A stretch of 20,000 nucleotides of DNA, taken from an uncultured virus (IMG/VR IMGVR_UViG_3300025011_000039) (taxonomy: Duplodnaviria > Heunggongvirae > Uroviricota > Caudoviricetes). How positions within the stretch are numbered: position 1 is the first letter of the stretch; each line of letters starts with the position of its first letter. Below, piece by piece: positions 2,775 through 19,953 of this stretch. Both the position numbers and the translations under genes were made by a program. The notes under the pieces are model-generated. The model was given only the letters and a program-made list of their open reading frames with translations. It did not search any database and was not told where the DNA came from. The stretch lies in the IMG/VR virus record IMGVR_UViG_3300025011_000039; one strand, written 5' to 3'.

Positions 2775-2795
2775 AAAAGACACCGTTAGGTGTCT
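2775..2795 (-). terminator. Intrinsic terminator-like hairpin after the HNH gene
   Basis: AGACACC-TAAC-GGTGTCT then TTT on the minus strand. Confidence 0.5.
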
Positions 2796-3618
2796 AGTTT
2801 GTTGATTGCTTATTTGTCCAAGCGTAACCTGCTGCTCTGCGACATTCCATGCTATCGTATTTTACCTTACCCCTTTTATATCTCGATAGTGGTACTGTAA
2901 ATTCCTTACCGCAATATTCGCAGTTTAAAGTTACTGTATTGGTTTTTGAGTTACGTTTCTTTTGACACTCCGCACTACAATACTTACCCCTGCCACCCTC
3001 TATGAGGTAGGTTGTTGTATTAAACTCCTTACCACAAACACCGCATACCGCAATTATATGTATTTCTTGATTAATTGGTTTGCCGTGCTGTTTGCCGTGA
3101 CAAGATGAACATAGGGTAATTAGGTTGCTAGGATCATCGTTGCGGTTTTCTGTTTGTCCGGTATGGTCCTTGTGGTGGACAGCAAGTTTTTCTACTGCAC
3201 CACATTCAACACATTTATATCCATCACGCTCCAAAACCAATTCCCTATTTCCTGAGAATCTTGTTTTGTCGTGATTTTTTGCATCACTCGCCCTTTTATA
3301 ATCCATTCTTTTAGCGTTACGCTCCCTATCTTTTAGGCGAATAGCATCAATATTTTTAAGTCTATATTCACGAGACTTCTCTTTCTTTTCTTCGGCATTT
3401 TCAAGGTATATTCCCTTAAACGTATGCTCTTTGCAGCAATATTTTTGCTTACCAGACGAAGGCATAAAAACTACACCACAATATTTACACTTTCTTTCAG
3501 TTAGGGGTGGTCTTAAATGCCTTTCTTTCCTTGAATTTTCCCTGCACTCAGAACTACAATACTTCTGCGATCTGGTTGCATTAAATTCCTTGCCGCATCT
3601 TGGGCATTTCTCTATCAA
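2794..3618 (-). CDS. Freestanding HNH endonuclease with four flanking Cys-rich zinc-ribbon repeats (putative homing endonuclease)
   Basis: RDGYKCVECG...LAVHHKD...NDDPSNLITLCSSCHGKQH HNH core; repeated CxxCGKEF...KYCSxEC units; GGAGGTG SD 6 nt before TTG at 3618 (the track's GTG 3627 overlaps the SD). Confidence 0.88.
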   Translation of the reverse strand: MIEKCPRCGKEFNATRSQKYCSSECRENSRKERHLRPPLTERKCKYCGVVFMPSSGKQKYCCKEHTFKGIYLENAEEKKEKSREYRLKNIDAIRLKDRERNAKRMDYKRASDAKNHDKTRFSGNRELVLERDGYKCVECGAVEKLAVHHKDHTGQTENRNDDPSNLITLCSSCHGKQHGKPINQEIHIIAVCGVCGKEFNTTTYLIEGGRGKYCSAECQKKRNSKTNTVTLNCEYCGKEFTVPLSRYKRGKVKYDSMECRRAAGYAWTNKQSTN

Positions 3619-3627
3619 AATATACAC

Positions 3628-3691: not shown

Positions 3692-4663
3692 TTACACAGG
3701 AATACTGAATTGGAAAGGCCTCCACGACTTACTGCCACAAGAATACCACATTATGGAACCTACTTTCCAGACCTGATTCTCCATATTCTTCCAAGAGATA
3801 ATATCGTATTTATCCCCAGATTCTAGGCGATTAATCCACTTCATGGATTTTTTAGCCATCTTAGAGTCCATAACACACCATGGTTGACCGGTCTTTCCTG
3901 CTTGACGACGGAATTGCTTATAGACAATCAATTTCATCGAACCGTTGTAAATGTTCGGGTTGTTGTCGGAAGAATCTACTTTACCTTCACCGCCGATTAA
4001 TTCCAAACCTTTCTTGCGAAGGGCTGTAGGCACAATTAAAGTATCAGGTTGAAGATTTGCGTCCTTGCCCGAACTGTCCTTAACATCAAACATTTTTTGA
4101 CATAAAATTTCGAGATTCTCGTCGTTGAGTTCTAGGGCCTCTAAGTTATCCTGAGTGCTTCCATAGTTAGCAGAAGTCTGAGCGTTTGAAGCAAGCGGCA
4201 ACCCATTGGCTGTCAAAGTCCAGTTAACAGGAGTTCCGTTAACCATAAAACTTGTCTGGTCGGCATAAGTAAGTAAACCGGATGCGCACGCTTCGCGGTG
4301 TCTTGCTGCGCCAATAGAGAAACCGGAAAAATCATCCTTTAAATTAATAAGTTTAGCATTAGACAGTAAGAATCTGTCATACTCCATGCCCGCCTGCCAC
4401 ACGATTGGGGTCCAGATCTTCGTATCGCCTTGTTTCATGGTGCCATAAGTGAATTCACCGTTCCACTTACTGTAGTCAATCGCCCCAACCATCTCACCGA
4501 TTGCCTCAGTGGGGTTATCTGATTGCTCAGGAGTATACAACTCGTCAATCATACTATCTTGAATAGCATCGGTAAAACCGTCCTGCCAAAATTCCAAGAG
4601 CGCATGTTCATATTTCCCAACTAACTGTTCAAAATCTCCGCTTTCTTGAATTAAAACTGCCAT
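3692..4663 (-). CDS. Major capsid protein (HK97 fold, Mu gpT-like)
   Basis: 323 aa, follows scaffold and a 141-aa gene; LQPDTLIVPTAL and WCVMD motifs typical of this capsid class. Confidence 0.85.
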   Translation of the reverse strand: MAVLIQESGDFEQLVGKYEHALLEFWQDGFTDAIQDSMIDELYTPEQSDNPTEAIGEMVGAIDYSKWNGEFTYGTMKQGDTKIWTPIVWQAGMEYDRFLLSNAKLINLKDDFSGFSIGAARHREACASGLLTYADQTSFMVNGTPVNWTLTANGLPLASNAQTSANYGSTQDNLEALELNDENLEILCQKMFDVKDSSGKDANLQPDTLIVPTALRKKGLELIGGEGKVDSSDNNPNIYNGSMKLIVYKQFRRQAGKTGQPWCVMDSKMAKKSMKWINRLESGDKYDIISWKNMENQVWKVGSIMWYSCGSKSWRPFQFSIPV

Positions 4664-7491: not shown

Positions 7492-9606
7492 CTAACCTAC
7501 CATACTCATTACCGCCTGCACCTGCTGTTCTGCCGGTAGTTGCATGATTTGAACAAAGGTATCAGGATCGTTCTCTTTAATCTGATTTAACTTGTCCACA
7601 AAACTCATAACTGCGCCCTGTTGCAACTCGCCGCTCATAGCCTCTTTACTACTTTCAAGGTCGTGCGATTGCTGCTGGCGGTTTAGTTCTCCCTGCTGTT
7701 TCGTAACAGCAAGTTCTTTCTCATGCTGCTGTTTAGCAAGCATCATATCGGTACTCTGCTGTAGTTGCTGTTCCTGTATCTGCTTCGCCTGCTCTTCCTG
7801 CTTTGCCTGCATCTCCTGTGCCTGCTGTATATCCTGCTCCATTTGCCCAATAACTTCCTTAAGGTGCGGAACACCGATTTTATCAAGAATTTTCAGTATC
7901 AGCATATTTCCAGGAGTAGGTTCAAAACGTCCCTGCCCTGCAAGAGACACGATAGAATTCATCATTTCCGACTTATTCTTCATGAATCCGACTTCTGCAC
8001 TAATCTCAATATCGAAGTCTGGATAAATTAAGTCACCGTTAACGTCACGAAGCATAGACAAGCGGTTAAACTGACCGTATTTATTCTCGCCCTTCTCTCC
8101 TGTAATACGAAAAGGTCTATCATCATCACAGAACGCCAATGCAAACTCGGCAATAGTGCGGTAAAGAGTCTTGTATGAGGTTGACTTATAGGCAGACTTA
8201 ATCGCTAATTTATTACTTGACTGACTGATATATGCCTGCGCTTGATCTCCGGAAGTTACTCCTGGTTGATGAACTCCTAATGAAGCATCGGTTACGCCGG
8301 TAATAAGTTGCATCCATTCTTTGAATTTATCAACCAATTGAATACCGTCAATATTGGTACTTAAATCAACTTCCTTGACAGAATTCGGATCATTAACATG
8401 GATTATCTCTGATGTTGGGTCCATAAGTTTTCTTTGCACTTCAAGAGAATCGGTTAAAATCTTCTTCCTACCACGAAGGAAAGATTCTTCATACATATGC
8501 ACTGCTTTCTTAATACTCTCCTGCAAGTCCCAAACATCTTCCATAATAGATATACCCCAACAACATTTATCACGCATAATAAACGGTTGGTAGACTATAT
8601 CCCAGCAAGTAGGTATGTAGTGTTCTGCTTCAATATCGCTGTCTATTTTCGAGTAGATAGGATTACCTTGCTCGTCTATACTCTTTCTCAACATAGATCC
8701 TGCTTCAATAGTTTCAGTCATATAGGGTTCGCCTGTTTCCTCGTCCCTACGATAAAAGAACTTCGGCAGGTGCTTAATCAGTAAATCACCGGACCACCAC
8801 AACTTACAAATATCTCCGTCATCGTCGCGGTAGGTAGTCTCAATAATTGTATACTTGCCAAGTCCCGTATCCTTAGAAACTCCGGTAGTGTCGGTAACGG
8901 TAGTTATTCTTTGGTCGCCCAATATCTCGTCATACTCGGCATACAGAATTGCCTTTTCTTCCAGCATGTCACTCGTTATATCCTTCCATTTGCGAAGAAT
9001 ATACTTTTGTGTACGGTTAACCGGATGATGATAATGCTCCATGTCGTCGCCGAAGTTAATAGATGATTTGTTAGGTATAATATCCTTCGGGTGAGGGTTG
9101 CTAATCTCAATCTCACCGACATATCCAGCACGTTTAATGTTGTTATTCCAGTGAACCTTTTTGAATGTACCGCCAAGTTTACTTACTCTGCGCTCGTCTG
9201 ACATATTCATTTCTTCAAGTGAAGGTGAAGAACTTCTCAGCACATAACCGACGTAACTTTTTAAAGCATTAACCGGCACTTCATCGGCAGCGGTAACAGG
9301 TTTAAAGTCATGGTCAGGAATAGTCATGTCAATTAACGCTTCTATAATTAGGCGAGGGAAGTTAACAACTGTTCTCGCTTCCTTATCTTGCCTATTGTTG
9401 ACGTTCTCGAATTCGCGATTACCGTTATACATATTTTCCCACGAATCCATAAGAAGATCGTACTTTTTCTTCGTTTGACGGTCAATCTCGAACTGATCTT
9501 GCCAGTATTTCAGCAAATCAAGGGTCTCTTGATCGTATTCTACAGCAGGTGCTACTATTTCTCTCACCTTCTTTTTTAACGCACGAAATGGTTTTTTCCA
9601 GTCCAT
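7492..9606 (-). CDS. Portal protein (P22-like, long Gln-rich C-terminal coiled coil)
   Basis: 704 aa following terL; RTVVNF, GGTFKKVHW, WGISIMEDV, ITGVTDASLG..PGVTSG and DFDIEI motifs. Confidence 0.88.
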   Translation of the reverse strand: MDWKKPFRALKKKVREIVAPAVEYDQETLDLLKYWQDQFEIDRQTKKKYDLLMDSWENMYNGNREFENVNNRQDKEARTVVNFPRLIIEALIDMTIPDHDFKPVTAADEVPVNALKSYVGYVLRSSSPSLEEMNMSDERRVSKLGGTFKKVHWNNNIKRAGYVGEIEISNPHPKDIIPNKSSINFGDDMEHYHHPVNRTQKYILRKWKDITSDMLEEKAILYAEYDEILGDQRITTVTDTTGVSKDTGLGKYTIIETTYRDDDGDICKLWWSGDLLIKHLPKFFYRRDEETGEPYMTETIEAGSMLRKSIDEQGNPIYSKIDSDIEAEHYIPTCWDIVYQPFIMRDKCCWGISIMEDVWDLQESIKKAVHMYEESFLRGRKKILTDSLEVQRKLMDPTSEIIHVNDPNSVKEVDLSTNIDGIQLVDKFKEWMQLITGVTDASLGVHQPGVTSGDQAQAYISQSSNKLAIKSAYKSTSYKTLYRTIAEFALAFCDDDRPFRITGEKGENKYGQFNRLSMLRDVNGDLIYPDFDIEISAEVGFMKNKSEMMNSIVSLAGQGRFEPTPGNMLILKILDKIGVPHLKEVIGQMEQDIQQAQEMQAKQEEQAKQIQEQQLQQSTDMMLAKQQHEKELAVTKQQGELNRQQQSHDLESSKEAMSGELQQGAVMSFVDKLNQIKENDPDTFVQIMQLPAEQQVQAVMSMVG

Positions 9607-9781: not shown

Positions 9782-11380
9782 TTAAAAACCTACAATATGT
9801 TCCTGTAACTTCTCGTATTCTTTCTCAAACGCAATGTTATTTAAAACTGCTGACTGCTCAGATAACGACATATCATCGGGAAAGTTAAACTTTTCATCCT
9901 TAGAAATGGGAGGTCTTGACATTACGCAATAGCGTAAACTTTCGTTGCTGTGCGTGACCTCGTGTGGAGTATCTGCCGCATCCTCAGAGTCGTTTTTATC
10001 ATGTTCAAGTAACGGCAAGCAACGTATCATATTTTTACAGGTATCAAATATTTTTAGTTTAGCAGTAAAAATAGTCTCCGTCTTAATACCTTCATCTGTC
10101 ATAATATCCTGCTTTTCTTCCCTAGCTAACAGATACTCTCTTACCGCCCTCCACCCTGCCTTACGCTCATGCTTTGCTTTTCTCAGGTTATTTAGCCCGG
10201 CACGGTTCATTATCTCCCTGCCGCTTGTCCCTGTCTCTTGCCGTCTATTCCATAAGTCAGGAGAAGCAACCGTATAACTTATTTTCTCGTCTTTGGGTGT
10301 CATGGAGATAATCTTTTTCGCCGCCTGACTAAGTGTTAAGTTTGGTTGATATAACTCACGATAAGCATACATAATCCCTTCTGGTGATACTGCCCACCAG
10401 TGACAAGAACACATATCAAGTCCATAGTCTAAAGAGCAGAACCGTTTCCACCAGGACGGTATCTTAAACGGTTTAACGACATGCACATCACGACGAAACT
10501 CTTTAAAGAACTGCCCTTCACCGGCAGTAAACGCCTCTTCTGGAGTCGCTGGATACTCTGCCATATAACTATGAGGTAAGTCTTTTTTAACCTGCTCATA
10601 CCACTCCTGGGTACGTCTAGGGTCGGTACTCCAAGGCATAAATATAGGCGTAAACGTATTTTCACCGTTGTACGCCTTCCAAAATATTTCCTCAAATAAG
10701 GTACCTTTTTTAGCGGTAGACAACCCAATAACCTGCCCACCAGTAGGACGATTAATAGTCGGGTAAGCAGCAGACCAAATATCTCTAGCGAACATCTGAA
10801 ACGCCCATTCGTCGAGTATTACGAGGTTTGCCGTGAAAGAACGTCCACTGTCAGGACCAGCAGACATAGCGTTAAAAACAGCAGGTTCCTTGCCCTTATG
10901 GTAGATAGTAACCGACAATACTGTTGAATCCCATGTAGGGTTAGGGTATTGCTTAGGAGTACCCTTAACGTGACGAATCATCCATGAAGGTAGGTACCTA
11001 AGAATAAAGCATATACGCCTAATAAGTTCCTTAGCATCTTCTTCCCTCTTAGATAGAGCAACAACAGAATATCCAGGTCTAAATATAACCCCGTGCAATC
11101 CGTAAATAAGAGATAGCCAAGTAAAACCTAACTGCCTAGCTTTAAGAATAATCGACAACTTACTGTCAATAATCTTCCTTAACGCTTCCTTCTGACCGTC
11201 CCATAAATTAAGTTTAGCAACTAGGTCAGGAACATCTCTATCCTCAATATAAGCGTATTTATCTATGAAATACTCTACACTCTTAGAGGATTTACGATAT
11301 TCTAATTCAACTTTCGCTGCCGCTTTTTCCCTTAACTTCTGAGCGGATAGTTTTTTCTTTTCCTTCTGTTGGTCAGTCAT
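9782..11380 (-). CDS. terL: Terminase large subunit
   Basis: Walker A ILKARQLGFT, Walker B LVILDEWAF, coupling motif LST, nuclease SLDYG and C-terminal acidic/His motif. Confidence 0.95.
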   Translation of the reverse strand: MTDQQKEKKKLSAQKLREKAAAKVELEYRKSSKSVEYFIDKYAYIEDRDVPDLVAKLNLWDGQKEALRKIIDSKLSIILKARQLGFTWLSLIYGLHGVIFRPGYSVVALSKREEDAKELIRRICFILRYLPSWMIRHVKGTPKQYPNPTWDSTVLSVTIYHKGKEPAVFNAMSAGPDSGRSFTANLVILDEWAFQMFARDIWSAAYPTINRPTGGQVIGLSTAKKGTLFEEIFWKAYNGENTFTPIFMPWSTDPRRTQEWYEQVKKDLPHSYMAEYPATPEEAFTAGEGQFFKEFRRDVHVVKPFKIPSWWKRFCSLDYGLDMCSCHWWAVSPEGIMYAYRELYQPNLTLSQAAKKIISMTPKDEKISYTVASPDLWNRRQETGTSGREIMNRAGLNNLRKAKHERKAGWRAVREYLLAREEKQDIMTDEGIKTETIFTAKLKIFDTCKNMIRCLPLLEHDKNDSEDAADTPHEVTHSNESLRYCVMSRPPISKDEKFNFPDDMSLSEQSAVLNNIAFEKEYEKLQEHIVGF

Positions 11381-15457: not shown

Positions 15458-15486
15458 TTGCCATATGGAAGCCCATGTAGTATACT
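15458..15486 (+). promoter_or_regulatory. sigmaA-type promoter of the RHH gene, overlapped by an operator-like palindrome
   Basis: TTGCCA, 17 bp, TATACT; TGGGTTGCCA-TA-TGGAAGCCCA at 15454-15475. Confidence 0.7.
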
Positions 15487-15505: not shown

Positions 15506-15706
15506 ATGTCGGCAAAAAGAAAAGAAAAATATAGAGATGGCTGGGAAAGTTTTAACCTGCGCCTGTCAACCGAGGATAAAGCAAAACTAGCCGAAATATC
15601 AGCAGATACGCGGGTTCCAGCATCCGAAATAGCCAGAAATGCTATCAAAAAAGAACTTGCGGAACTTCAAAAAACGCTGAAAAAGGCAGATACAGCTAGT
15701 ATTTAG
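15506..15706 (+). CDS. Ribbon-helix-helix (Arc/CopG/MetJ-like) transcriptional regulator (66 aa)
   Basis: GGAGGTGG SD before ATG 15506; SFNLRLSTEDKAKLAEIS...PASEIARNAI pattern. Confidence 0.8.
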   Translation: MSAKRKEKYRDGWESFNLRLSTEDKAKLAEISADTRVPASEIARNAIKKELAELQKTLKKADTASI

Positions 15707-15717
15707 CAGGCAGGATA

Positions 15718-15790
15718 ATCTGGATACCCATAAATGGCTGAATATAAGGTTATTTGAGGCTTTACGGCATGGGTATCCAGATGATAGTAT
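15718..15790 (+). promoter_or_regulatory. 14-bp inverted repeat operators and probable promoter of the early gene string
   Basis: ATCTGGATACCCAT (15718-15731)/ATGGGTATCCAGAT (15769-15782); TTTACG, 18 bp, TGnTAGTAT. Confidence 0.55.
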
Positions 15791-15832
15791 AAGCACATGG
15801 AACACAGCAACACACGAACGGGAGGCGCAGAC

Positions 15833-15958
15833 ATGAAAAAACTTCTTAAATACACCGCCACAGCATTAGCAGTAACTACAATGTTTCACCCGGTAGGAAT
15901 GGGAATCGCTCTCCTGGTAGGAATCGGATACATGGGTTACTTATTAGCTACAAATTAA
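15833..15958 (+). CDS. Small hydrophobic membrane peptide (41 aa)
   Basis: GGAGG SD; MKKLLKYTATALAVTTMFHPVGMGIALLVGIGYMGYLLATN. Confidence 0.65.
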   Translation: MKKLLKYTATALAVTTMFHPVGMGIALLVGIGYMGYLLATN

Positions 15959-15974
15959 ATAAGGGGGAAACAAA

Positions 15975-16106
15975 ATGACCAAACAGCTAAAGCGCAAAAT
16001 CAAGCAGTACACCAAATCGGTAGGACTAGAAAAAGCGGTAAACCTAAACAGAACTAAGTTAATCGACTTTTGCAACTTCTGCGTATTTCACAGCATTAAA
16101 TTCTAG
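15975..16106 (+). CDS. Small basic protein (43 aa)
   Basis: AAGGGGG SD; MTKQLKRKIKQYTKSVGLEKAVNLNRTKLIDFCNFCVFHSIKF; stop abuts hammerhead 1. Confidence 0.65.
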   Translation: MTKQLKRKIKQYTKSVGLEKAVNLNRTKLIDFCNFCVFHSIKF

Positions 16107-16157
16107 CCTGCCTGATGAGCTGTAGACAGCGAAATGGGGATAAAACCCCATAGCAGG
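16107..16157 (+). ncRNA. Hammerhead ribozyme, type I (HHR1)
   Basis: Stem I CCTGC/GCAGG; core CTGATGA; stem II GCTG-TAGA-CAGC; GAAA; stem III TGGGG-ATAAAA-CCCCA; T-A cleavage site (AUA, cut after 16152). Confidence 0.92.
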
Positions 16158-16209
16158 ATGAAAGTAAGCTGCACAACACGAAAACAGAATATCGAAGGAG
16201 GCAGACAGT

Positions 16210-16494
16210 ATGAAAACAGCCGAAAGCATCAGCATAAAAAAACTAAACAAAGCTGAAAACGCATTATTACAGGAAGAACTGGAGTTGGCGGCAAGAAAGT
16301 TTAATGAAAACTTCGACTACTACACCAAAAATAGAAAAAACCCAATCGAACTAATGGTTTGGTACGGAAGATATGTAGCAATAGACAGATTGTTCGGAAC
16401 TTCAAGTCTAGTAGAAAGTTGGAAGTTAAGTCACATGACAAACCTGTTAATGCAACTTAGCACAGGAGCGATTGAACACTATAGGACAGCATAA
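16210..16494 (+). CDS. Hypothetical protein (94 aa) bracketed by two hammerheads
   Basis: ORF track; AAGGAGG SD. Confidence 0.8.
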   Translation: MKTAESISIKKLNKAENALLQEELELAARKFNENFDYYTKNRKNPIELMVWYGRYVAIDRLFGTSSLVESWKLSHMTNLLMQLSTGAIEHYRTA

Positions 16495-16495
16495 A

Positions 16496-16553
16496 CCCAC
16501 CTGACGAGACTTGACGGTAACAAGTCGAAATGGCCGAAAGTGGCCATAGTGGG
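16496..16553 (+). ncRNA. Hammerhead ribozyme, type I (HHR2)
   Basis: Stem I CCCAC/GTGGG; core CTGACGA; stem II GACTTG-ACGGTAA-CAAGTC; GAAA; stem III TGGCC-GAAAGT-GGCCA; T-A cleavage site (AUA, cut after 16548). Confidence 0.93.
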
Positions 16554-16601
16554 AAACCACAGCAACAAAGCGCACCGCACACGCAGAAAAGAATACAAAA
16601 A

Positions 16602-16704
16602 CCCCACAGCGCGAACCAGCGAAGTCGGCATAATCCGAAAGGGCCAGCCAAGGCAAGCGAACACTGGACCCGAAGGGATATCCGCTAGAGGTGCAGAAAA
16701 GGGG
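16602..16704 (+). ncRNA. Candidate structured RNA of unknown class
   Basis: Nested pairings CCCC/GGGG, ACC/GGT, AGCG/CGCT and CCAG/CTGG, plus TCC-GAAA-GGG and CCC-GAA-GGG hairpins in a GC-rich intergenic stretch; stems are short. Confidence 0.35.
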
Positions 16705-16712
16705 AAGCATGG

Positions 16713-16764
16713 TAGTTTAGGTTTGCGTGAGTACCCACAAGGGAATTGACGTGAATTTAAACTA
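16713..16764 (+). repeat. Pre-RBS long stem-loop element (copy 1)
   Basis: TAGTTTAGGTTTGCGT/ACGTGAATTTAAACTA 16-bp stem with four G-U pairs, capped by CCC-ACAA-GGG. Confidence 0.65.
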
Positions 16765-16781
16765 AAAGGAGATTGATGATT

Positions 16782-17096
16782 ATGCCGAAAGTAAACATTA
16801 AGGAACTTCAGGTTTGCAATTCTTACGGTGAAGAACAAAACACGCAGTCGATAAAAGAAGCGTTACTGCGCGAAGCGGTTAAGCAATGCGACTGCTACTG
16901 TACAGACTTGTTAATTTTCTTTGACTACACATGGAAGGACTTGCTTAAGGGTGATTTGACCGAAGTAACATTATATTTTCGCCAAATGGGTATTGATTGG
17001 AAAGAGGAAAATAAAGACTGTAGGAGTACGGCAAAATTAAGGAGAGATGTCGAAAAGGACACTTTAGAATTAACCATAGAATATGGCAGGCACTAA
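16782..17096 (+). CDS. Hypothetical protein (about 104 aa; alternative starts 16773/16776)
   Basis: ORF track; AAGGAG SD. Confidence 0.75.
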   Translation: MPKVNIKELQVCNSYGEEQNTQSIKEALLREAVKQCDCYCTDLLIFFDYTWKDLLKGDLTEVTLYFRQMGIDWKEENKDCRSTAKLRRDVEKDTLELTIEYGRH

Positions 17097-17150
17097 CCTA
17101 GCACTCGCTAGGTTTTACCTCTGGTCCCTGTAGGGGTTGGACGTAAAATC
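17095..17150 (+). repeat. Intergenic double-hairpin element (copy 2)
   Basis: AACCTAGC/GCTAGGTT, then GGTTTTAC...CCC-TGTA-GGG...GTAAAATC. Confidence 0.7.
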
Positions 17151-17167
17151 TAAGGAGGATGATAATT

Positions 17168-17395
17168 ATGTTTGAGGAAAAAGTAATATTCATGGAATCT
17201 ATTTGGAAGCACCTTGAGACGCTTCAAGATTCAGAAATACTGCAAGAAAAGAAGGATGCGCTTGAAATTCTGGAAATTGTCAACGATCCGCAAGTCCCGG
17301 CACATTGGGATCAAAAAGTAGAAGCATACTTGGAACTTGCTACTATAGAAATGCAAATACACAAGCGACAAGTTTCTGGGATGTGCAAGGAATAG
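17168..17395 (+). CDS. Hypothetical acidic protein (75 aa)
   Basis: AAGGAGG SD favours ATG 17168. Confidence 0.75.
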   Translation: MFEEKVIFMESIWKHLETLQDSEILQEKKDALEILEIVNDPQVPAHWDQKVEAYLELATIEMQIHKRQVSGMCKE

Positions 17396-17449
17396 GGACT
17401 CCGGTCCCTGCTTCGCCAAAACTCCTTTAGAGAGGGGTTTTGTTGAGGT
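17394..17449 (+). repeat. Intergenic double-hairpin element (copy 3)
   Basis: AGGGAC-TCCG-GTCCCT, then GCTTCGCCAAAACTCCT...AGGGGTTTTGTTGAGGT. Confidence 0.7.
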
Positions 17450-17467
17450 AAATATAGGAGGGATATT

Positions 17468-17659
17468 ATGATAGTAAACGAGTTCAAGAGTTTTAAAAAT
17501 ATATTCACCGTATTTTCATATGGTAATAAATTCCTACTTCAAGTAAAAATAGGAAGGTCGGGCAATTACTACAATTATAATTCCTTACTTAACATTGCTC
17601 CAACCGAATCTCAGGCATTTAGTTTATGGCAAAATCAAAGGAAATATTGGACTAGGTAG
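17468..17659 (+). CDS. Hypothetical protein (63 aa)
   Basis: ORF track; AGGAGG SD. Confidence 0.72.
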   Translation: MIVNEFKSFKNIFTVFSYGNKFLLQVKIGRSGNYYNYNSLLNIAPTESQAFSLWQNQRKYWTR

Positions 17660-17666
17660 CAGGTCC

Positions 17667-17726
17667 GCGACTACCTAAAGTCGCAGTTTTACCTAAATCC
17701 TTTTGCGAGAGGGTTTAGTTAAAACT
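17667..17726 (+). repeat. Intergenic double-hairpin element (copy 4)
   Basis: GCGACT-ACCTAA-AGTCGC, then AGTTTTACCTAAATCC...GGGTTTAGTTAAAACT. Confidence 0.75.
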
Positions 17727-17744
17727 ATGAGGGAGGCTAAAATT

Positions 17745-18371
17745 ATGAAAACTTTATATTTTGAAGGTGCCGGATGCGTACCGCGCGGAATGGTTGAAAA
17801 TTGCCGCATTAGAACAGCTTTTCACAATGACAAAGGGGAGGCAATCTACTTAGAAATGTCTGGTTTTGAAGTAACCAAAAACAGCGTCAAAAGCGTTAAA
17901 CAATTTACCTTTGCCGGGATAGTTGACCATTGCCATTATATCCATAATGACGACGATTGTAACAAGCACAGCATCGTCAGTATGAGACACAAAACTTTTA
18001 AGTACACCAAATCCGAAATTCTCAGTATTGTAAATTCTCTGGGTTGCAGTTTTGACGAGGTTGTTATTCTTCCTGACTTGGCCGGTTATCGAGTTTTTAA
18101 AGACCGCGAGGGTCATAACTTCGGGGATGAATTCAAATTTAACGCAGAACTTACCGCCCGCGCAGAGGAAATTAAAGCCTATTTTTACGCCTTGGAAAAA
18201 AGCGAGGGCAAGCAATACCCTAACTTTTCCTTATGGGTAGATCAGGATAACCGCGAAATACTCCATTTATTGAGGCATTTTAACGGCTATAATAAACATT
18301 GGTCGATAATAAATAGCGCAAACTGGAAGGAAAATACAACTAAAACCGTACTGGGAAAATACGCCTGTTAA
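17745..18371 (+). CDS. Hypothetical protein (208 aa)
   Basis: GGGAGG SD before ATG 17745 (MKTLYFEGAGC...NCRIRTAF). Confidence 0.82.
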   Translation: MKTLYFEGAGCVPRGMVENCRIRTAFHNDKGEAIYLEMSGFEVTKNSVKSVKQFTFAGIVDHCHYIHNDDDCNKHSIVSMRHKTFKYTKSEILSIVNSLGCSFDEVVILPDLAGYRVFKDREGHNFGDEFKFNAELTARAEEIKAYFYALEKSEGKQYPNFSLWVDQDNREILHLLRHFNGYNKHWSIINSANWKENTTKTVLGKYAC

Positions 18372-18385
18372 TATACAAATTCAAA

Positions 18386-18422
18386 CTCCCCGGTAGCTGT
18401 TGTGAGCAGTAAAACCGGGGAG
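18386..18422 (+). other. Intergenic hairpin
   Basis: CTCCCCGGT/ACCGGGGAG with inner GCTGTT/AGCAGT stem; no T-tract. Confidence 0.6.
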
Positions 18423-18469
18423 CAGGGAAAATATATGTCCACCGATATTATAACATAGGAGGTCATACC

Positions 18470-19102
18470 ATGACAAAGATAATAAATTTCTCTAACGCTC
18501 AAATGCCGATTATCACAGCAACAGCACCACGGCAAGAGGTCAAAACTGGATATGTGCAGGAGTTCGACGGTTGGAAGGTTGGTCAGGAGTGCCAGGTCAA
18601 GGAGTGGAACGGCACTTACCGCATTGACCATATTTATTGTTACTCTACATTTACTCAAGTTAGAGTTTTAAAGATTGCTCGCAACGGTAGCACAAAGGGA
18701 AGTAATACCACAGACATTAACAACCTATTACCGATAGGCGCAGCACAACCGACAACCGACAAGGACGGCAAAACAGCTTTACAGAAGGCACAGGAAATAT
18801 TAAAAATAAACGGTTTTGCGGTTAAGGACTGGTACTACACGACACAAGAATCACTTGTAGTAGTTATCAGTCACACAAAAACCGGCAGGGTTAAAATCCA
18901 GAGGGCGCGAATTATTCAAGGCGAAAAGATGCAGAAGGACATGGAAACATTTTCACTTGATATGGATAATCTTAGGTACACACTAGACAAAGAACAGCAA
19001 ATTTTCATTCCTAAACTTTTCGGGGGAGAATGGCATTGGTGGAACGATAGTGAAACGCTAAAGCCATTCAAGGGAAATAAATTAACACGTTTACTGGATT
19101 AG
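18470..19102 (+). CDS. Hypothetical protein (210 aa)
   Basis: ORF track; AGGAGGT SD. Confidence 0.82.
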   Translation: MTKIINFSNAQMPIITATAPRQEVKTGYVQEFDGWKVGQECQVKEWNGTYRIDHIYCYSTFTQVRVLKIARNGSTKGSNTTDINNLLPIGAAQPTTDKDGKTALQKAQEILKINGFAVKDWYYTTQESLVVVISHTKTGRVKIQRARIIQGEKMQKDMETFSLDMDNLRYTLDKEQQIFIPKLFGGEWHWWNDSETLKPFKGNKLTRLLD

Positions 19103-19119
19103 CAACAAGTATGAGGCAA

Positions 19120-19178
19120 GCGGCACCTTAACGCCGCAGTTTTACCAAAGTGTCACAAGAGGGGATTTTGGTAAAATT
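19120..19178 (+). repeat. Intergenic double-hairpin element (copy 5)
   Basis: GCGGC-ACCTTAAC-GCCGC, then AGTTTTACCAAAGT...AGGGGATTTTGGTAAAATT. Confidence 0.75.
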
Positions 19179-19195
19179 AAAAGGGGGTTAGATTT

Positions 19196-19435
19196 ATGAC
19201 TAATACATATTTAATCTATGATGGAAACAAAGGTTTATTTAATGATGATGCGGTAGTAATAGCTAAAAATGCAACCGAGGCAGTAAAAAAGTATATGAAA
19301 GGAAATAACATTTCGGGCAGTGTTAGAAGGGATGGAAGTAATTATGTAAGGTTTAAAGTTACTAAGTTTGTAACCAAGGAAAACAAAAGATATAAGTCTG
19401 GTAGATCAATTTGGTATTTGCATCTTACAGGATAA
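19196..19435 (+). CDS. Hypothetical basic protein (79 aa)
   Basis: ORF track; AAGGGGGT SD. Confidence 0.75.
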   Translation: MTNTYLIYDGNKGLFNDDAVVIAKNATEAVKKYMKGNNISGSVRRDGSNYVRFKVTKFVTKENKRYKSGRSIWYLHLTG

Positions 19436-19439
19436 TTGC

Positions 19440-19499
19440 AGGGACTAACGTCCCTTGCCTAAACTCTCTAGCAGGAGGGTTTCGGGAGGGGATTACCCC
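19440..19499 (+). repeat. Intergenic hairpin element (copy 6)
   Basis: AGGGAC-TAAC-GTCCCT, then AAACTCTC-TAGCAG-GAGGGTTT, then GGGG-ATTA-CCCC. Confidence 0.7.
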
Positions 19500-19522
19500 A
19501 ATACTATGAGGGAGGTCGTTAT

Positions 19523-19720
19523 ATGCGGGAATACATAGAGATTTTAATCCAAAACTACGCCACGAGTTCTATAAATGCTAAGACCGAAATGGAAATAATG
19601 AAACGTAATAACCAAGAGTACCTAGAAGGTTATTATCGTGGTAAGTCGGATGCTTTGGGTAACGTGGCGAGGGAACTTAGGAAGATGTTAGAGGAAAGCA
19701 CATTGGAGGCAACACAATGA
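19523..19720 (+). CDS. Hypothetical protein (65 aa)
   Basis: ORF track; GGGAGGT SD. Confidence 0.75.
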   Translation: MREYIEILIQNYATSSINAKTEMEIMKRNNQEYLEGYYRGKSDALGNVARELRKMLEESTLEATQ

Positions 19721-19953
19721 CCATAAACACGTCTAGCAACCCGATACAGCGGGGCAAAACGCCGACAGGTACAAATACACCTGGGTTAAGCAAATACCGA
19801 TTGTCAGTCCATTTCCCCGACTTACGCATAGGCAAAACTACTATCCCTGCTGGGGTGGATCGGAAGGAAGTCTGGGGAACTTCGCCGTTGGATGCCTGTC
19901 AGTGGACGGCAGAGCATTTTAGAGCGGCAGAGTGGGTGGAGGTGGTACAGTGA
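19717..19953 (+). CDS. Hypothetical protein (78 aa)
   Basis: ATGA overlap with the previous stop; GGAGG SD. Confidence 0.7.
   Translation: MTINTSSNPIQRGKTPTGTNTPGLSKYRLSVHFPDLRIGKTTIPAGVDRKEVWGTSPLDACQWTAEHFRAAEWVEVVQ

Follow-up and report, generated by a model that had tools for sequence, protein, structure and literature searches.

What holds the small genes of a phage early operon apart, when nearly every junction between them appears to fold? The question is raised by a stretch of 20,000 nucleotides from an uncultured Caudoviricetes phage (IMG/VR record IMGVR_UViG_3300025011_000039), hereafter the window, whose + strand from ~15.46 kb is a rightward, early-type operon. An earlier reading of the same letters, the original prediction, had placed RNA structure at all eight non-overlapping junctions between 16106 and 19523, with hammerhead ribozymes in the first two and seven long stem-loops starting from 16713 to 19440, in a repeated order of stop codon, structured element, strong Shine-Dalgarno (SD) sequence and small orphan open reading frame (ORF). 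We consider it somewhat better than an even bet that the small ORFs are exchangeable cassettes delimited by RNA-level punctuation, i.e., by ribozymes or by nuclease-processed modules that would do an equivalent job.

The structured junctions of this early operon are confirmed. The eight junctions, of 71–281 nt each, lie between 16107 and 19522, and all fold more stably than their dinucleotide shuffles (z < -2 in 8/8). From junction 1 to junction 8, the z-scores are -3.83, -5.05, -2.34, -2.74, -3.66, -4.78, -2.95 and -2.08. In an independent run, z was below -2 for 10 of 11 pieces of junction sequence, but for only 2 of 34 coding windows of 80 nt (coding mean -0.14). When the early regions of relatives were compared, six regions in all, 32 of 51 junctions of at least 25 nt had z < -2, which is an undercount because pseudoknotted ribozymes and junctions clipped by gene calls score poorly. 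All seven predicted stem-loops are present (16713-16764, 17097-17149, 17394-17449, 17667-17725, 18383-18425, 19120-19177 and 19438-19510), and each is more stable on the + strand than as its reverse complement, by 2.3–13.3 kcal/mol. The gene map likewise bears out the repeated order of stop codon, structure, strong SD and small orphan ORF.

Five junctions, those at 17097, 17394, 17667, 19120 and 19438, share their build. A hairpin of 5–6 bp (P1) sits at the stop codon, on it or just downstream, and a second hairpin (P2) abuts it; then come a short A-rich stretch, a strong SD and the ATG. P2 is near-fully paired, with one conserved C-U mismatch and a variable tetraloop, on a conserved base of the form GUUUYNCC...RAAAY (G[UC]UU on the 5' side and RAAY-like on the 3' side). 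Its length is 38–40 nt in four subtypes with unrelated interiors, and a UAAA-type spacer leaves 1–9 nt between it and the SD. All copies in the window are on the + strand. Subtype b occupies 17097-17149 (P1 17097-17112, P2 17112-17149) and is followed by CUAAGGAGG. Subtype c (17394-17449, P2 17410-17449, 57.1 bits with the covariance model) has a P1 that overlaps the stop codon UAG, and this module shares 60 nt at 100% identity with the related loci L001/L130. Subtype a lies at 17667-17725 (P1 17667-17684, P2 17686-17725, 56.5 bits) and subtype a2 at 19120-19177 (P1 19120-19137, P2 19139-19177, 27.4 bits). The most divergent copy, subtype d (19438-19510, 19.4 bits, E 0.094), combines a P1 of AGGGAC/GUCCCU, a P2-like hairpin at 19453-19490 and a small third hairpin.

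The fold of these modules is kept while their sequence changes. In alignment A6, which holds 15 distinct P2 of subtypes a, c and e without gaps, 93.3% of the cells are paired and both sides have changed in 10 of 18 pairs; none of 500 shuffles equalled this, and slid controls gave 2–5. Alignment A7 (ten P2, all distinct, of which nine belong to subtype b and one to a2) has 94.7% of cells paired and both sides changed in 7 of 17 pairs, again with 0/500 shuffles equal. P1 also shows compensatory changes between copies (GCGAC/GUCGC versus GCGGC/GCCGC, and CCUAGC/GCUAGG versus CCUAAC/GUUAGG). G-U pairs make up 58 of the 252 paired cells of A6 (23%, summed from the pair table), and the covariance model scores the site at 17686 with 56.5 bits on the + strand and 31.8 bits on the - strand, the other sites behaving alike. 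Since about a quarter of the pairs are G-U and the model favours the sense strand, the P2 fold is selected in RNA. Covariation, G-U pairs and strand bias together support an action of the junction elements at the RNA level. Eight of the 40 columns of A6 are invariant across subtypes a, c and e (G1, U3, U4, C7, C8, G33, U35 and A37), and subtype b has an invariant base of GUUUUACC/AAAA. An abutting P1 of at least 5 bp stands beside 26 of 46 distinct P2; most P2 that lack it belong to a form, here termed f, that follows another structured RNA (RNA R, see below) and has an outer stem instead.

The modules are also rare outside this setting. Long hairpins on a G[UC]UU base with an SD and a start codon occur 29 times on the + strand and once on the - strand of the window and its relatives, against a background of 8 in 896,554 strand-bases of unrelated loci. 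In a complete relative of 69,948 nt, all seven matches of the module model fall within 2.8 kb of the early operon. The model had zero matches in a 70-kb provirus of a more distant relative, zero among the 150 of 1591 candidates scored in a metagenome-assembled genome (MAG) of Pelotomaculum, and none in the more distant relatives L005-L010, save one at E ~1. Within the genomes searched, the module family is confined to one operon of one phage clade. Modules and RNA R were unmatched in Rfam 15, RAGATH families included, and at E ≤ 10 by the pistol, twister, hatchet, twister-sister and hepatitis delta virus (HDV)-like models of a library that does find the ribozymes of the relatives. A DNA pattern, GTTTTACC..GGTAAAA, gave at least 119 stretches in viral contigs, almost all of them chance, and served only as background.

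Several known elements were considered for the modules and set aside. Integron attC sites are imperfect hairpins with outer boxes RYYYAAC...GTTRRRY and an integron integrase nearby. The base of the modules, GTTT...AAAC with GTT outermost on the 5' side, has the opposite box arrangement, there is no integrase among the Pfam matches of the window, and the G-U pairs favour an RNA over a DNA fold. Mimics of CRISPR repeats were rejected as the interiors vary and the two ends form pairs, and an SD-sequestering switch was rejected as b-type copies do not keep the pairing between P2 and the true SD. The weak Rfam matches to drum (19.9 bits, over the 41-aa ORF), BLV_package, PreQ1, Plastid-rps12, BsrG and Glutamine-II were taken as chance.

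The first two junctions start with type I hammerheads. HH1 (16107-16157, + strand, predicted cut 16152/16153) has as its first base the one after the stop codon, and HH2 (16496-16553, + strand, predicted cut 16548/16549) is partly conserved in L130 and L131; both begin no more than 1–2 nt from the preceding stop codon. The hammerhead core is given as C3 U4 G5 A6 N7 G8 A9, G12 A13 A14 A15.1, U16.1 and H17 (PMC3088659). HH1 and HH2 carry the full type I core (CUGAUGA and CUGACGA, GAAA, A15.1-U16.1), with U and C at N7 respectively, A at H17, and the core-flanking pairs G10.1-C11.1, G1.1-C2.1 and A15.1-U16.1. Stems I/II/III have 5/4/6 pairs in HH1 and 5/6/7 in HH2, and both motifs end in stem I. 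A strict descriptor matched HH1, HH2 and nothing else in 192,938 bases of window and relatives. It had no match in unrelated phage loci (448,277 bases) and one in a set of 100 block-shuffled windows; it is so strict that bulged or mismatched copies of type I and type II in the relatives are missed. Rfam called neither hammerhead at its gathering thresholds. On a stretch of 681 nt the cores were aligned, and the best scores were 16.8 bits for HH9, against a threshold of 52, and 18.5 bits for RAGATH-1-hammerhead, against 56.3; these models are trained on other subgroups. HH1 and HH2 are hammerheads by motif and not by model score: the hammerheads of the original prediction stand on complete cores and rarity, with sub-threshold Rfam scores.

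At the position of HH2, the copy in L130 (9746-9800, on a contig shared with L001) has U-A in place of A15.1-U16.1 beside stem III, a change in the core that may make this copy weak or inactive. In L131, the copy has a canonical core and a mismatch in stem II. In the minimum-energy fold of junction 1, CUGCCU (16108-16113, the 5' strand of HH1 stem I) pairs with AGGCAG (16199-16204, in the SD region). Because the stem I strand pairs there, the predicted cleavage of HH1 would free the SD of the next ORF. HH1 had no copy among the 21 related loci described below, and this fold rests on one sequence.

Do ribozymes and modules occupy the same places? We compared the window with 21 related loci, retrieved via a 208-aa protein of the operon, a ribbon-helix-helix (RHH) protein and RNA R. 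Matches at Rfam gathering thresholds comprised six pistol, one twister-P5 and two type II hammerhead ribozymes in L001-L010, and six pistol and one type II hammerhead in L130-L137, some of these loci being overlapping pieces of one contig. All of these ribozymes lie at gene junctions of the same operon. Behind the gene family of 107 aa, the window and L131 have module b where L136 has a pistol. A hairpin comes after the 208-aa family in the window, L130 and L136, and a pistol takes its place in L005. For the 77/80-aa family, the next element is a pistol in L131 and a type II hammerhead in L136. As orthologous junctions carry a pistol, a twister or a type II hammerhead instead, ribozymes and hairpin modules are positionally interchangeable punctuation in a hypervariable cassette region. 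Ribozymes and hairpins had been proposed to share one job. What the relatives sustain of this is that the two fill the same slots and replace one another at orthologous junctions.

Junction 2 combines both kinds of element. It consists of HH2, an A/C-rich leader, the ~103-nt RNA R, a 24-bp f hairpin and the SD. The leader (16554-16601, + strand, CACAGCAACAAAGCGCACCGCACACGCAG...) is G-poor, unstructured and ~45 nt long, with high-scoring segment pairs (HSPs) in 5/21 loci; it is kept ahead of RNA R and recurs in hybrid junctions. RNA R (16602-16704, + strand) is a conserved branched RNA with a closing stem of CCCC/GGGG, two arms and 25 predicted pairs. Over its 18 distinct sequences, 96.0% of the cells are paired and both sides have changed in 12 of 25 pairs, against 0–3 in slid controls, and its multi-stem junction has highly conserved unpaired bases. 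A coding reading is excluded because copies differ by insertions or deletions of 8–9 nt. Of the stretches found with the pattern for RNA R, 15 of the 27 viral ones were true, with several duplicates among them, and 4 of the 28 metagenome ones were false; false stretches, whose flanks did not align, were removed by eye. The 5' neighbour of RNA R is a type I hammerhead in the window, and otherwise a type II hammerhead, a pistol or a promoter; two distant members are preceded by a promoter-like TTGACA...TATAAT. One copy, at 1370-1495 of L179, lies in a recombinant junction and is without ACAGCGCGAACC; this deletion variant was excluded from alignment A5. The f hairpin (16713-16764, + strand, z -6.06) is a form of P2 with the outer stem AGUUUAG/UUAAACU, and the SD follows it.

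A fixed gene content in the relatives would have counted against the original prediction. Instead, the ORFs vary among the relatives, and homology breaks at the elements. Four of the 12 window ORFs have a homologue in five relatives (the RHH protein is 71–97% identical) and eight have none; six window ORFs were found in 0 of the 21 related loci. Over the same loci, HSPs to subtype b were present in nine, c in seven, a in six, a2 in five, d in three and RNA R in 11. Of 132 HSP ends, 115 fall inside a junction or no more than 12 nt from one, a zone that covers 31% of the length. In the modules, HSPs begin with the base that follows the stop codon (at 17097 in five loci, at 17660 in five loci) and stop at the start codon; blocks of 60–90 nt with 82–100% identity border unrelated ORFs. 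Some junctions of the relatives are hybrids with break points inside a module. At 7395-7488 of L131, the 5' 46 nt of a pistol are fused to a copy of the -10 and leader of the early promoter; at 9118-9241 of L132 and 3742-3865 of L133, a type II hammerhead and the A/C-rich leader are fused into the middle of a c-type P2. As far as these comparisons go, modules are sufficient markers of cassette borders, and they may have a causal role in exchange.

How would such punctuation work? The model that we infer covers self-cleavage in vivo, the cut in the hairpin and its nuclease, the protection given by P1 and the SD, and the recombination between phages. HH1 and HH2 would cut the nascent RNA after 16152 and after 16548, without a host factor; that the ribozymes would cut is almost certain. 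The two-hairpin module would achieve the equivalent with the aid of the host. P2 would be cut by a structure-specific endoribonuclease, most likely RNase III, and P1 would stay on the upstream cistron as a 3' hairpin cap. On the downstream cistron, the 5' end made by the cut would be protected by a ribosome at the strong SD; RNase J1 is reportedly blocked by ribosomes that initiate at such an SD. At minimum, the module would insulate each ribosome-binding site from the neighbouring ORF. The modules would also provide homology for the exchange of ORFs between phages, because co-circulating relatives keep them nearly identical. We favour endonucleolytic processing of P2 since ribozymes fill the same slots, a pair of abutting hairpins would make sense with one of them consumed, and there are precedents in Firmicutes. 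The modules are imperfect hairpins between the cistrons of an early polycistronic RNA, as are the RNase III signals of T7 and SP82. RNase III of Bacillus subtilis cuts the early mRNA of phage SP82 (PMC4838370), the half-life of SP82 mRNA is shortened by mutations of the ribosome-binding site (PMC7509114), and clustered prophage hammerheads cleave in vitro (PMC3088659). The cut of RNase III leaves a 2-nt 3' overhang, with preferences in proximal, middle and distal boxes (PMC11780869).

Several points weigh against punctuation by cleavage, or against parts of it. The Rfam scores of both hammerheads are far under their thresholds, and not every hammerhead copy need be active, because the L130 copy has U-A in its core. 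The sample of relatives is itself limited, as 14 of the 21 loci were retrieved via RNA R with flanks of 1.5–2.5 kb; these are short and not independent of the region. Homology breaks and gene swaps also occur at a plain junction of 16 nt (15959-15974) and beside an overlapping junction, so modules are not required for shuffling. A classical substrate of RNase III is a duplex of about two helical turns. P2 has only 16–18 pairs with one mismatch; the f hairpin has 24 pairs, and the 5–6 bp of P1 could stack on P2. A P2 base that is conserved across differing interiors suggests a sequence-specific reader, which RNase III is only weakly. Cutting need not stabilise either: RNase J1 of B. subtilis degrades the 5'-OH RNA that the glmS ribozyme releases. 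Finally, all cuts at these elements are predicted ones.

A bolder form of the cleavage reading, which we put forward tentatively and well short of even confidence, makes the module the nuclease-dependent equivalent of a self-cleaving ribozyme, with the conserved base as the recognition site of one specific endoribonuclease of host or phage. The replacement of modules by ribozymes would then disclose the role of phage ribozymes, the release and insulation of single-gene messages in a region made for fast exchange of cassettes, and RNA R would be a small RNA with a 5' end set by the preceding ribozyme or promoter.

The main rival to processing is that the modules are never cut, and are passive insulators between cistrons and barriers to 3'-to-5' exonucleases, with cleavage left to the ribozymes. 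REP elements in operons of Escherichia coli block 3'-to-5' decay in this manner. P1 and P2 would also prevent pairing between the sequence of the upstream ORF and the ribosome-binding site beside it. The geometry suits this rival: P2 ends 1–9 nt before a strong SD, its helices are short for RNase III, and its interior varies freely provided that pairing holds. Modules also accompany unrelated ORFs, where translation independent of context matters. Yet an insulator leaves unexplained why orthologous junctions hold ribozymes, which are known only to cut, and why two abutting hairpins and the sequence of the P2 base are retained. We regard it as improbable, though of all the competitors it survives best.

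Another explanation makes the conserved base, GUUUYNCC...RAAAY, the site of a sequence-specific protein, either a phage or host endoribonuclease other than RNase III, or a translational regulator of all cassettes. The eight invariant columns across subtypes a, c and e, the invariant base of subtype b, the P2 length fixed in four subtypes and the confinement of the family to one phage clade would all fit such a reader. But no RNA-binding protein or nuclease is recognisable among the window ORFs, and the conserved base could stem from recent common descent and gene conversion; we consider this explanation unlikely.

It is very unlikely that the modules act mainly as DNA, i.e., as linker homologies for cassette exchange between co-infecting phages with an incidental RNA fold. 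The nearly identical blocks between unrelated ORFs, their edges at stop and start codons and the hybrid junctions are what such linkers would leave, but compensatory changes and 23% G-U pairs keep the RNA fold on the transcribed strand only, all sites are on the sense strand, and swaps also occur without modules.

We give next to no credence to the two remaining explanations. A new class of self-cleaving ribozyme, either the module or RNA R, could be expected in slots enriched for ribozymes, the logic behind the discovery of pistol, hatchet and twister-sister (PMC5737381, PMC6765202), and RNA R does have a multi-stem junction with conserved unpaired bases; P2, however, is near-fully paired with no obvious catalytic core, and RNA R always comes after a ribozyme or promoter, which would make a second cutter redundant. 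Were the hairpins intrinsic terminators or attenuators, by which expression is graded from gene to gene as with the stem-loops of the promoter early stem-loop (PeSL) elements of T4, this would account for the (A)GUUUU after P1 of subtypes a and b and for the terminator-scan match at 17667-17684. But this is the only one of the seven window elements to pass the scan, and a U-run is missing from subtypes c and d. Where the U-run exists, it forms the 5' arm of P2, and it occurs even in the f form, which lacks P1; nor do promoters lie downstream to restart transcription. Promoter matches inside modules were limited to 9-of-12 ones that overlap an SD region, in three modules, and the relatives do not keep them.

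The hairpin of junction 6 stands somewhat apart from the punctuation described above. It is GC-rich, follows the 208-aa gene (18383-18425), is known from only three sequences and is ambiguous in strand. There is no U-run after it on the + strand, and UUUGAAUUUG follows it on the minus strand. Upstream on the minus strand is an extended -10, TGTTATAAT, at 18455-18447, as part of a promoter-like TTGTCA-18-TATAAT with TG (11/12 matches; 18375-18476), from which the hairpin and UUUGAAUUUG are ~20 nt away. The extended -10, the hairpin and UUUGAAUUUG are kept in L130 and L136, the sole two relatives with junction 6; the -35 is not conserved. The hairpin may be the terminator of a candidate antisense RNA of ~60 nt, or simply the 3' hairpin of the 208-aa gene. 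The stem-loop that had been listed at 18386 as a module of the operon is present, but it may belong to a minus-strand unit.

The operon starts at a divergent promoter pair at ~15.36–15.49 kb. The rightward site (15458-15486, + strand, TTGCCA-17-TATACT, 10/12 matches) lies upstream of the RHH gene, and the promoter scan places the other at 15390-15362 on the minus strand. The RHH gene (15506-15706, + strand) is the conserved left anchor of the operon and encodes a ribbon-helix-helix regulator by its matches to Pfam RHH_3 (E 0.0014, under the curated cut-off) and a PHROG repressor. Downstream, sequence comparison with L131 and L136 showed a 17-nt inverted repeat with GGGTATCC-type half-sites and a conserved leader (15715-15785, strand unspecified). 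The half-sites form an inverted repeat in the window and a direct repeat in L131, and an RNA hairpin was rejected on this flip of orientation. Because of the flip, the half-sites are probably DNA operators for neighbouring regulators. The leader GCACATGGAACACAGCAACA downstream of the repeat is 100% identical over 24–26 nt in L142 and L159, and CACAGCAACA is present three times in the operon (15803, 16558 and 18514).

Ten small ORF cassettes follow on the + strand between 15833 and 19720, encoding 41–210 aa, all with a strong SD and none of a known family: 15833-15958, 15975-16106, 16210-16494, 16776/16782-17096, 17168-17395, 17468-17659, 17745-18371, 18470-19102, 19196-19435 and 19523-19720. 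No Pfam or PHROG function was found for any ORF in 15833-19953, and the sole library matches of the ten cassettes were a weak, function-less PHROG (19523-19720) and a sub-threshold Pfam DUF (17168-17395). No gene of the operon is shared more widely than the 208-aa orphan (17745-18371), which has no family in Pfam or PHROG and is 44–87% identical in 10 viral contigs; its carriers include phages of 100–138 kb with pistol ribozymes at the adjoining junctions. The 210-aa ORF had zero relatives in viral contigs. The ORFs, all of them orphans, may serve in anti-defence or host takeover.

Elsewhere in the window, the minus strand encodes phage structural genes from 1 to 15.2 kb by Pfam, including a P22-like portal (7492-9606), a Mu gpT-like head protein (3692-4663) and a sub-threshold terminase-like match (9782-11380, 21.4 bits against a curated cut-off of 22), with an HNH endonuclease amid the head genes (2794-3627, minus strand, Pfam HNH, E 4.9e-07). 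The host is probably a Gram-positive anaerobe, since the portal has a relative with 54% identity on a contig of the Pelotomaculum sp. MAG. A fraction of 0.89 of the window words was present in three DNA sequencing runs, all of one groundwater study, and none of the sequencing runs listed as containing the window was an RNA run. A blastn search with 15700-19600 had zero matches in the cultured-phage collection, and the nearest record, a 7.9-kb fragment (G001), left the operon unmatched.

How does this arrangement compare with known systems? Prophage hammerhead clusters that flank single genes of varying identity were described in 2011, and read as cutting long phage RNAs into gene-length mRNAs (PMC3088659). 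Like these clusters, the window has several ribozymes at the junctions of one phage unit, with inconstant genes between them; unlike the clusters as they are described there, it has ribozymes at only 2/8 junctions, modules or other structures at the rest, and relatives with a pistol, a twister or a type II hammerhead at the orthologous junctions. Unrelated ribozyme classes are reported as interchangeable in phage-like contexts, the exact motif being seemingly unimportant (PMC6765202, PMC5737381). The neighbourhoods of twister, pistol, hatchet, twister-sister and RAGATH motifs share with our locus both this interchangeability and the presence of other structured RNAs nearby (PMC6765202, PMC5737381). 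According to a 2019 review, the biological role of many self-cleaving ribozymes near phage genes is still undetermined (PMC6765202). The original prediction knew of no description of the mixed layout. In this it was only partly right: ribozyme-flanked prophage genes, their cutting into gene-length messages and the interchangeability of ribozyme classes are already in print (PMC3088659, PMC6765202), but hairpin modules that replace ribozymes at phage junctions were not found in the literature searched, although the motif supplements of the Breaker laboratory from 2015 and 2017 might list such motifs. As far as our searches of the literature and Rfam 15 go, what is new is the two-hairpin module that substitutes for ribozymes, its restriction to one operon, and the crisp homology blocks from stop to start codon.

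Modules and RNA R differ from the RNAs of those ribozyme-associated neighbourhoods in lying outside all Rfam 15 families, RAGATH included. The early region of T7 has RNase III sites R0.3-R1.3. The sites of T7 and of SP82 (PMC4838370) resemble the modules as imperfect intercistronic hairpins that leave a 3' hairpin upstream and a strong SD near the new 5' end; in the window the helix is shorter (16–18 pairs), the sequence of the base is conserved, a separate P1 abuts the presumed target, and the cutting is a prediction. PeSLs of T4-type phages combine a strong sigma-70-like promoter with a terminator stem-loop (PMC2839356, PMC4122927). The shuffling of genes that the original prediction had likened to them does occur: both are small conserved intergenic cassettes in hyperplastic regions rich in ORFans, and both lie where close relatives begin to differ by an insertion, deletion or replacement, changes that recombination between the PeSLs explains (PMC2839356, PMC4122927). 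The likeness stops there, as the modules are promoterless, terminator-like in 1/7 cases and join the cistrons of one transcript, with swaps at junctions without elements too.

This phage clade offers a natural swap experiment, in which three ribozyme classes and one hairpin module stand at the same junctions of the same genes. If a host RNase does cut the module, the function they share would be cistron release and insulation. The modules mark out a hypervariable set of early orphan genes, and it is in such regions that genes for anti-defence or host takeover are sought; the modules would also be compact natural insulator parts for Gram-positive hosts. RiboJ is an engineered insulator in which a ribozyme and then a hairpin precede the ribosome-binding site. 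As in RiboJ, an element placed between the upstream context and the ribosome-binding site would make the expression of each cassette independent of its neighbours; unlike this engineered part, the elements of the window, whether ribozyme or hairpins, would be its natural counterpart.

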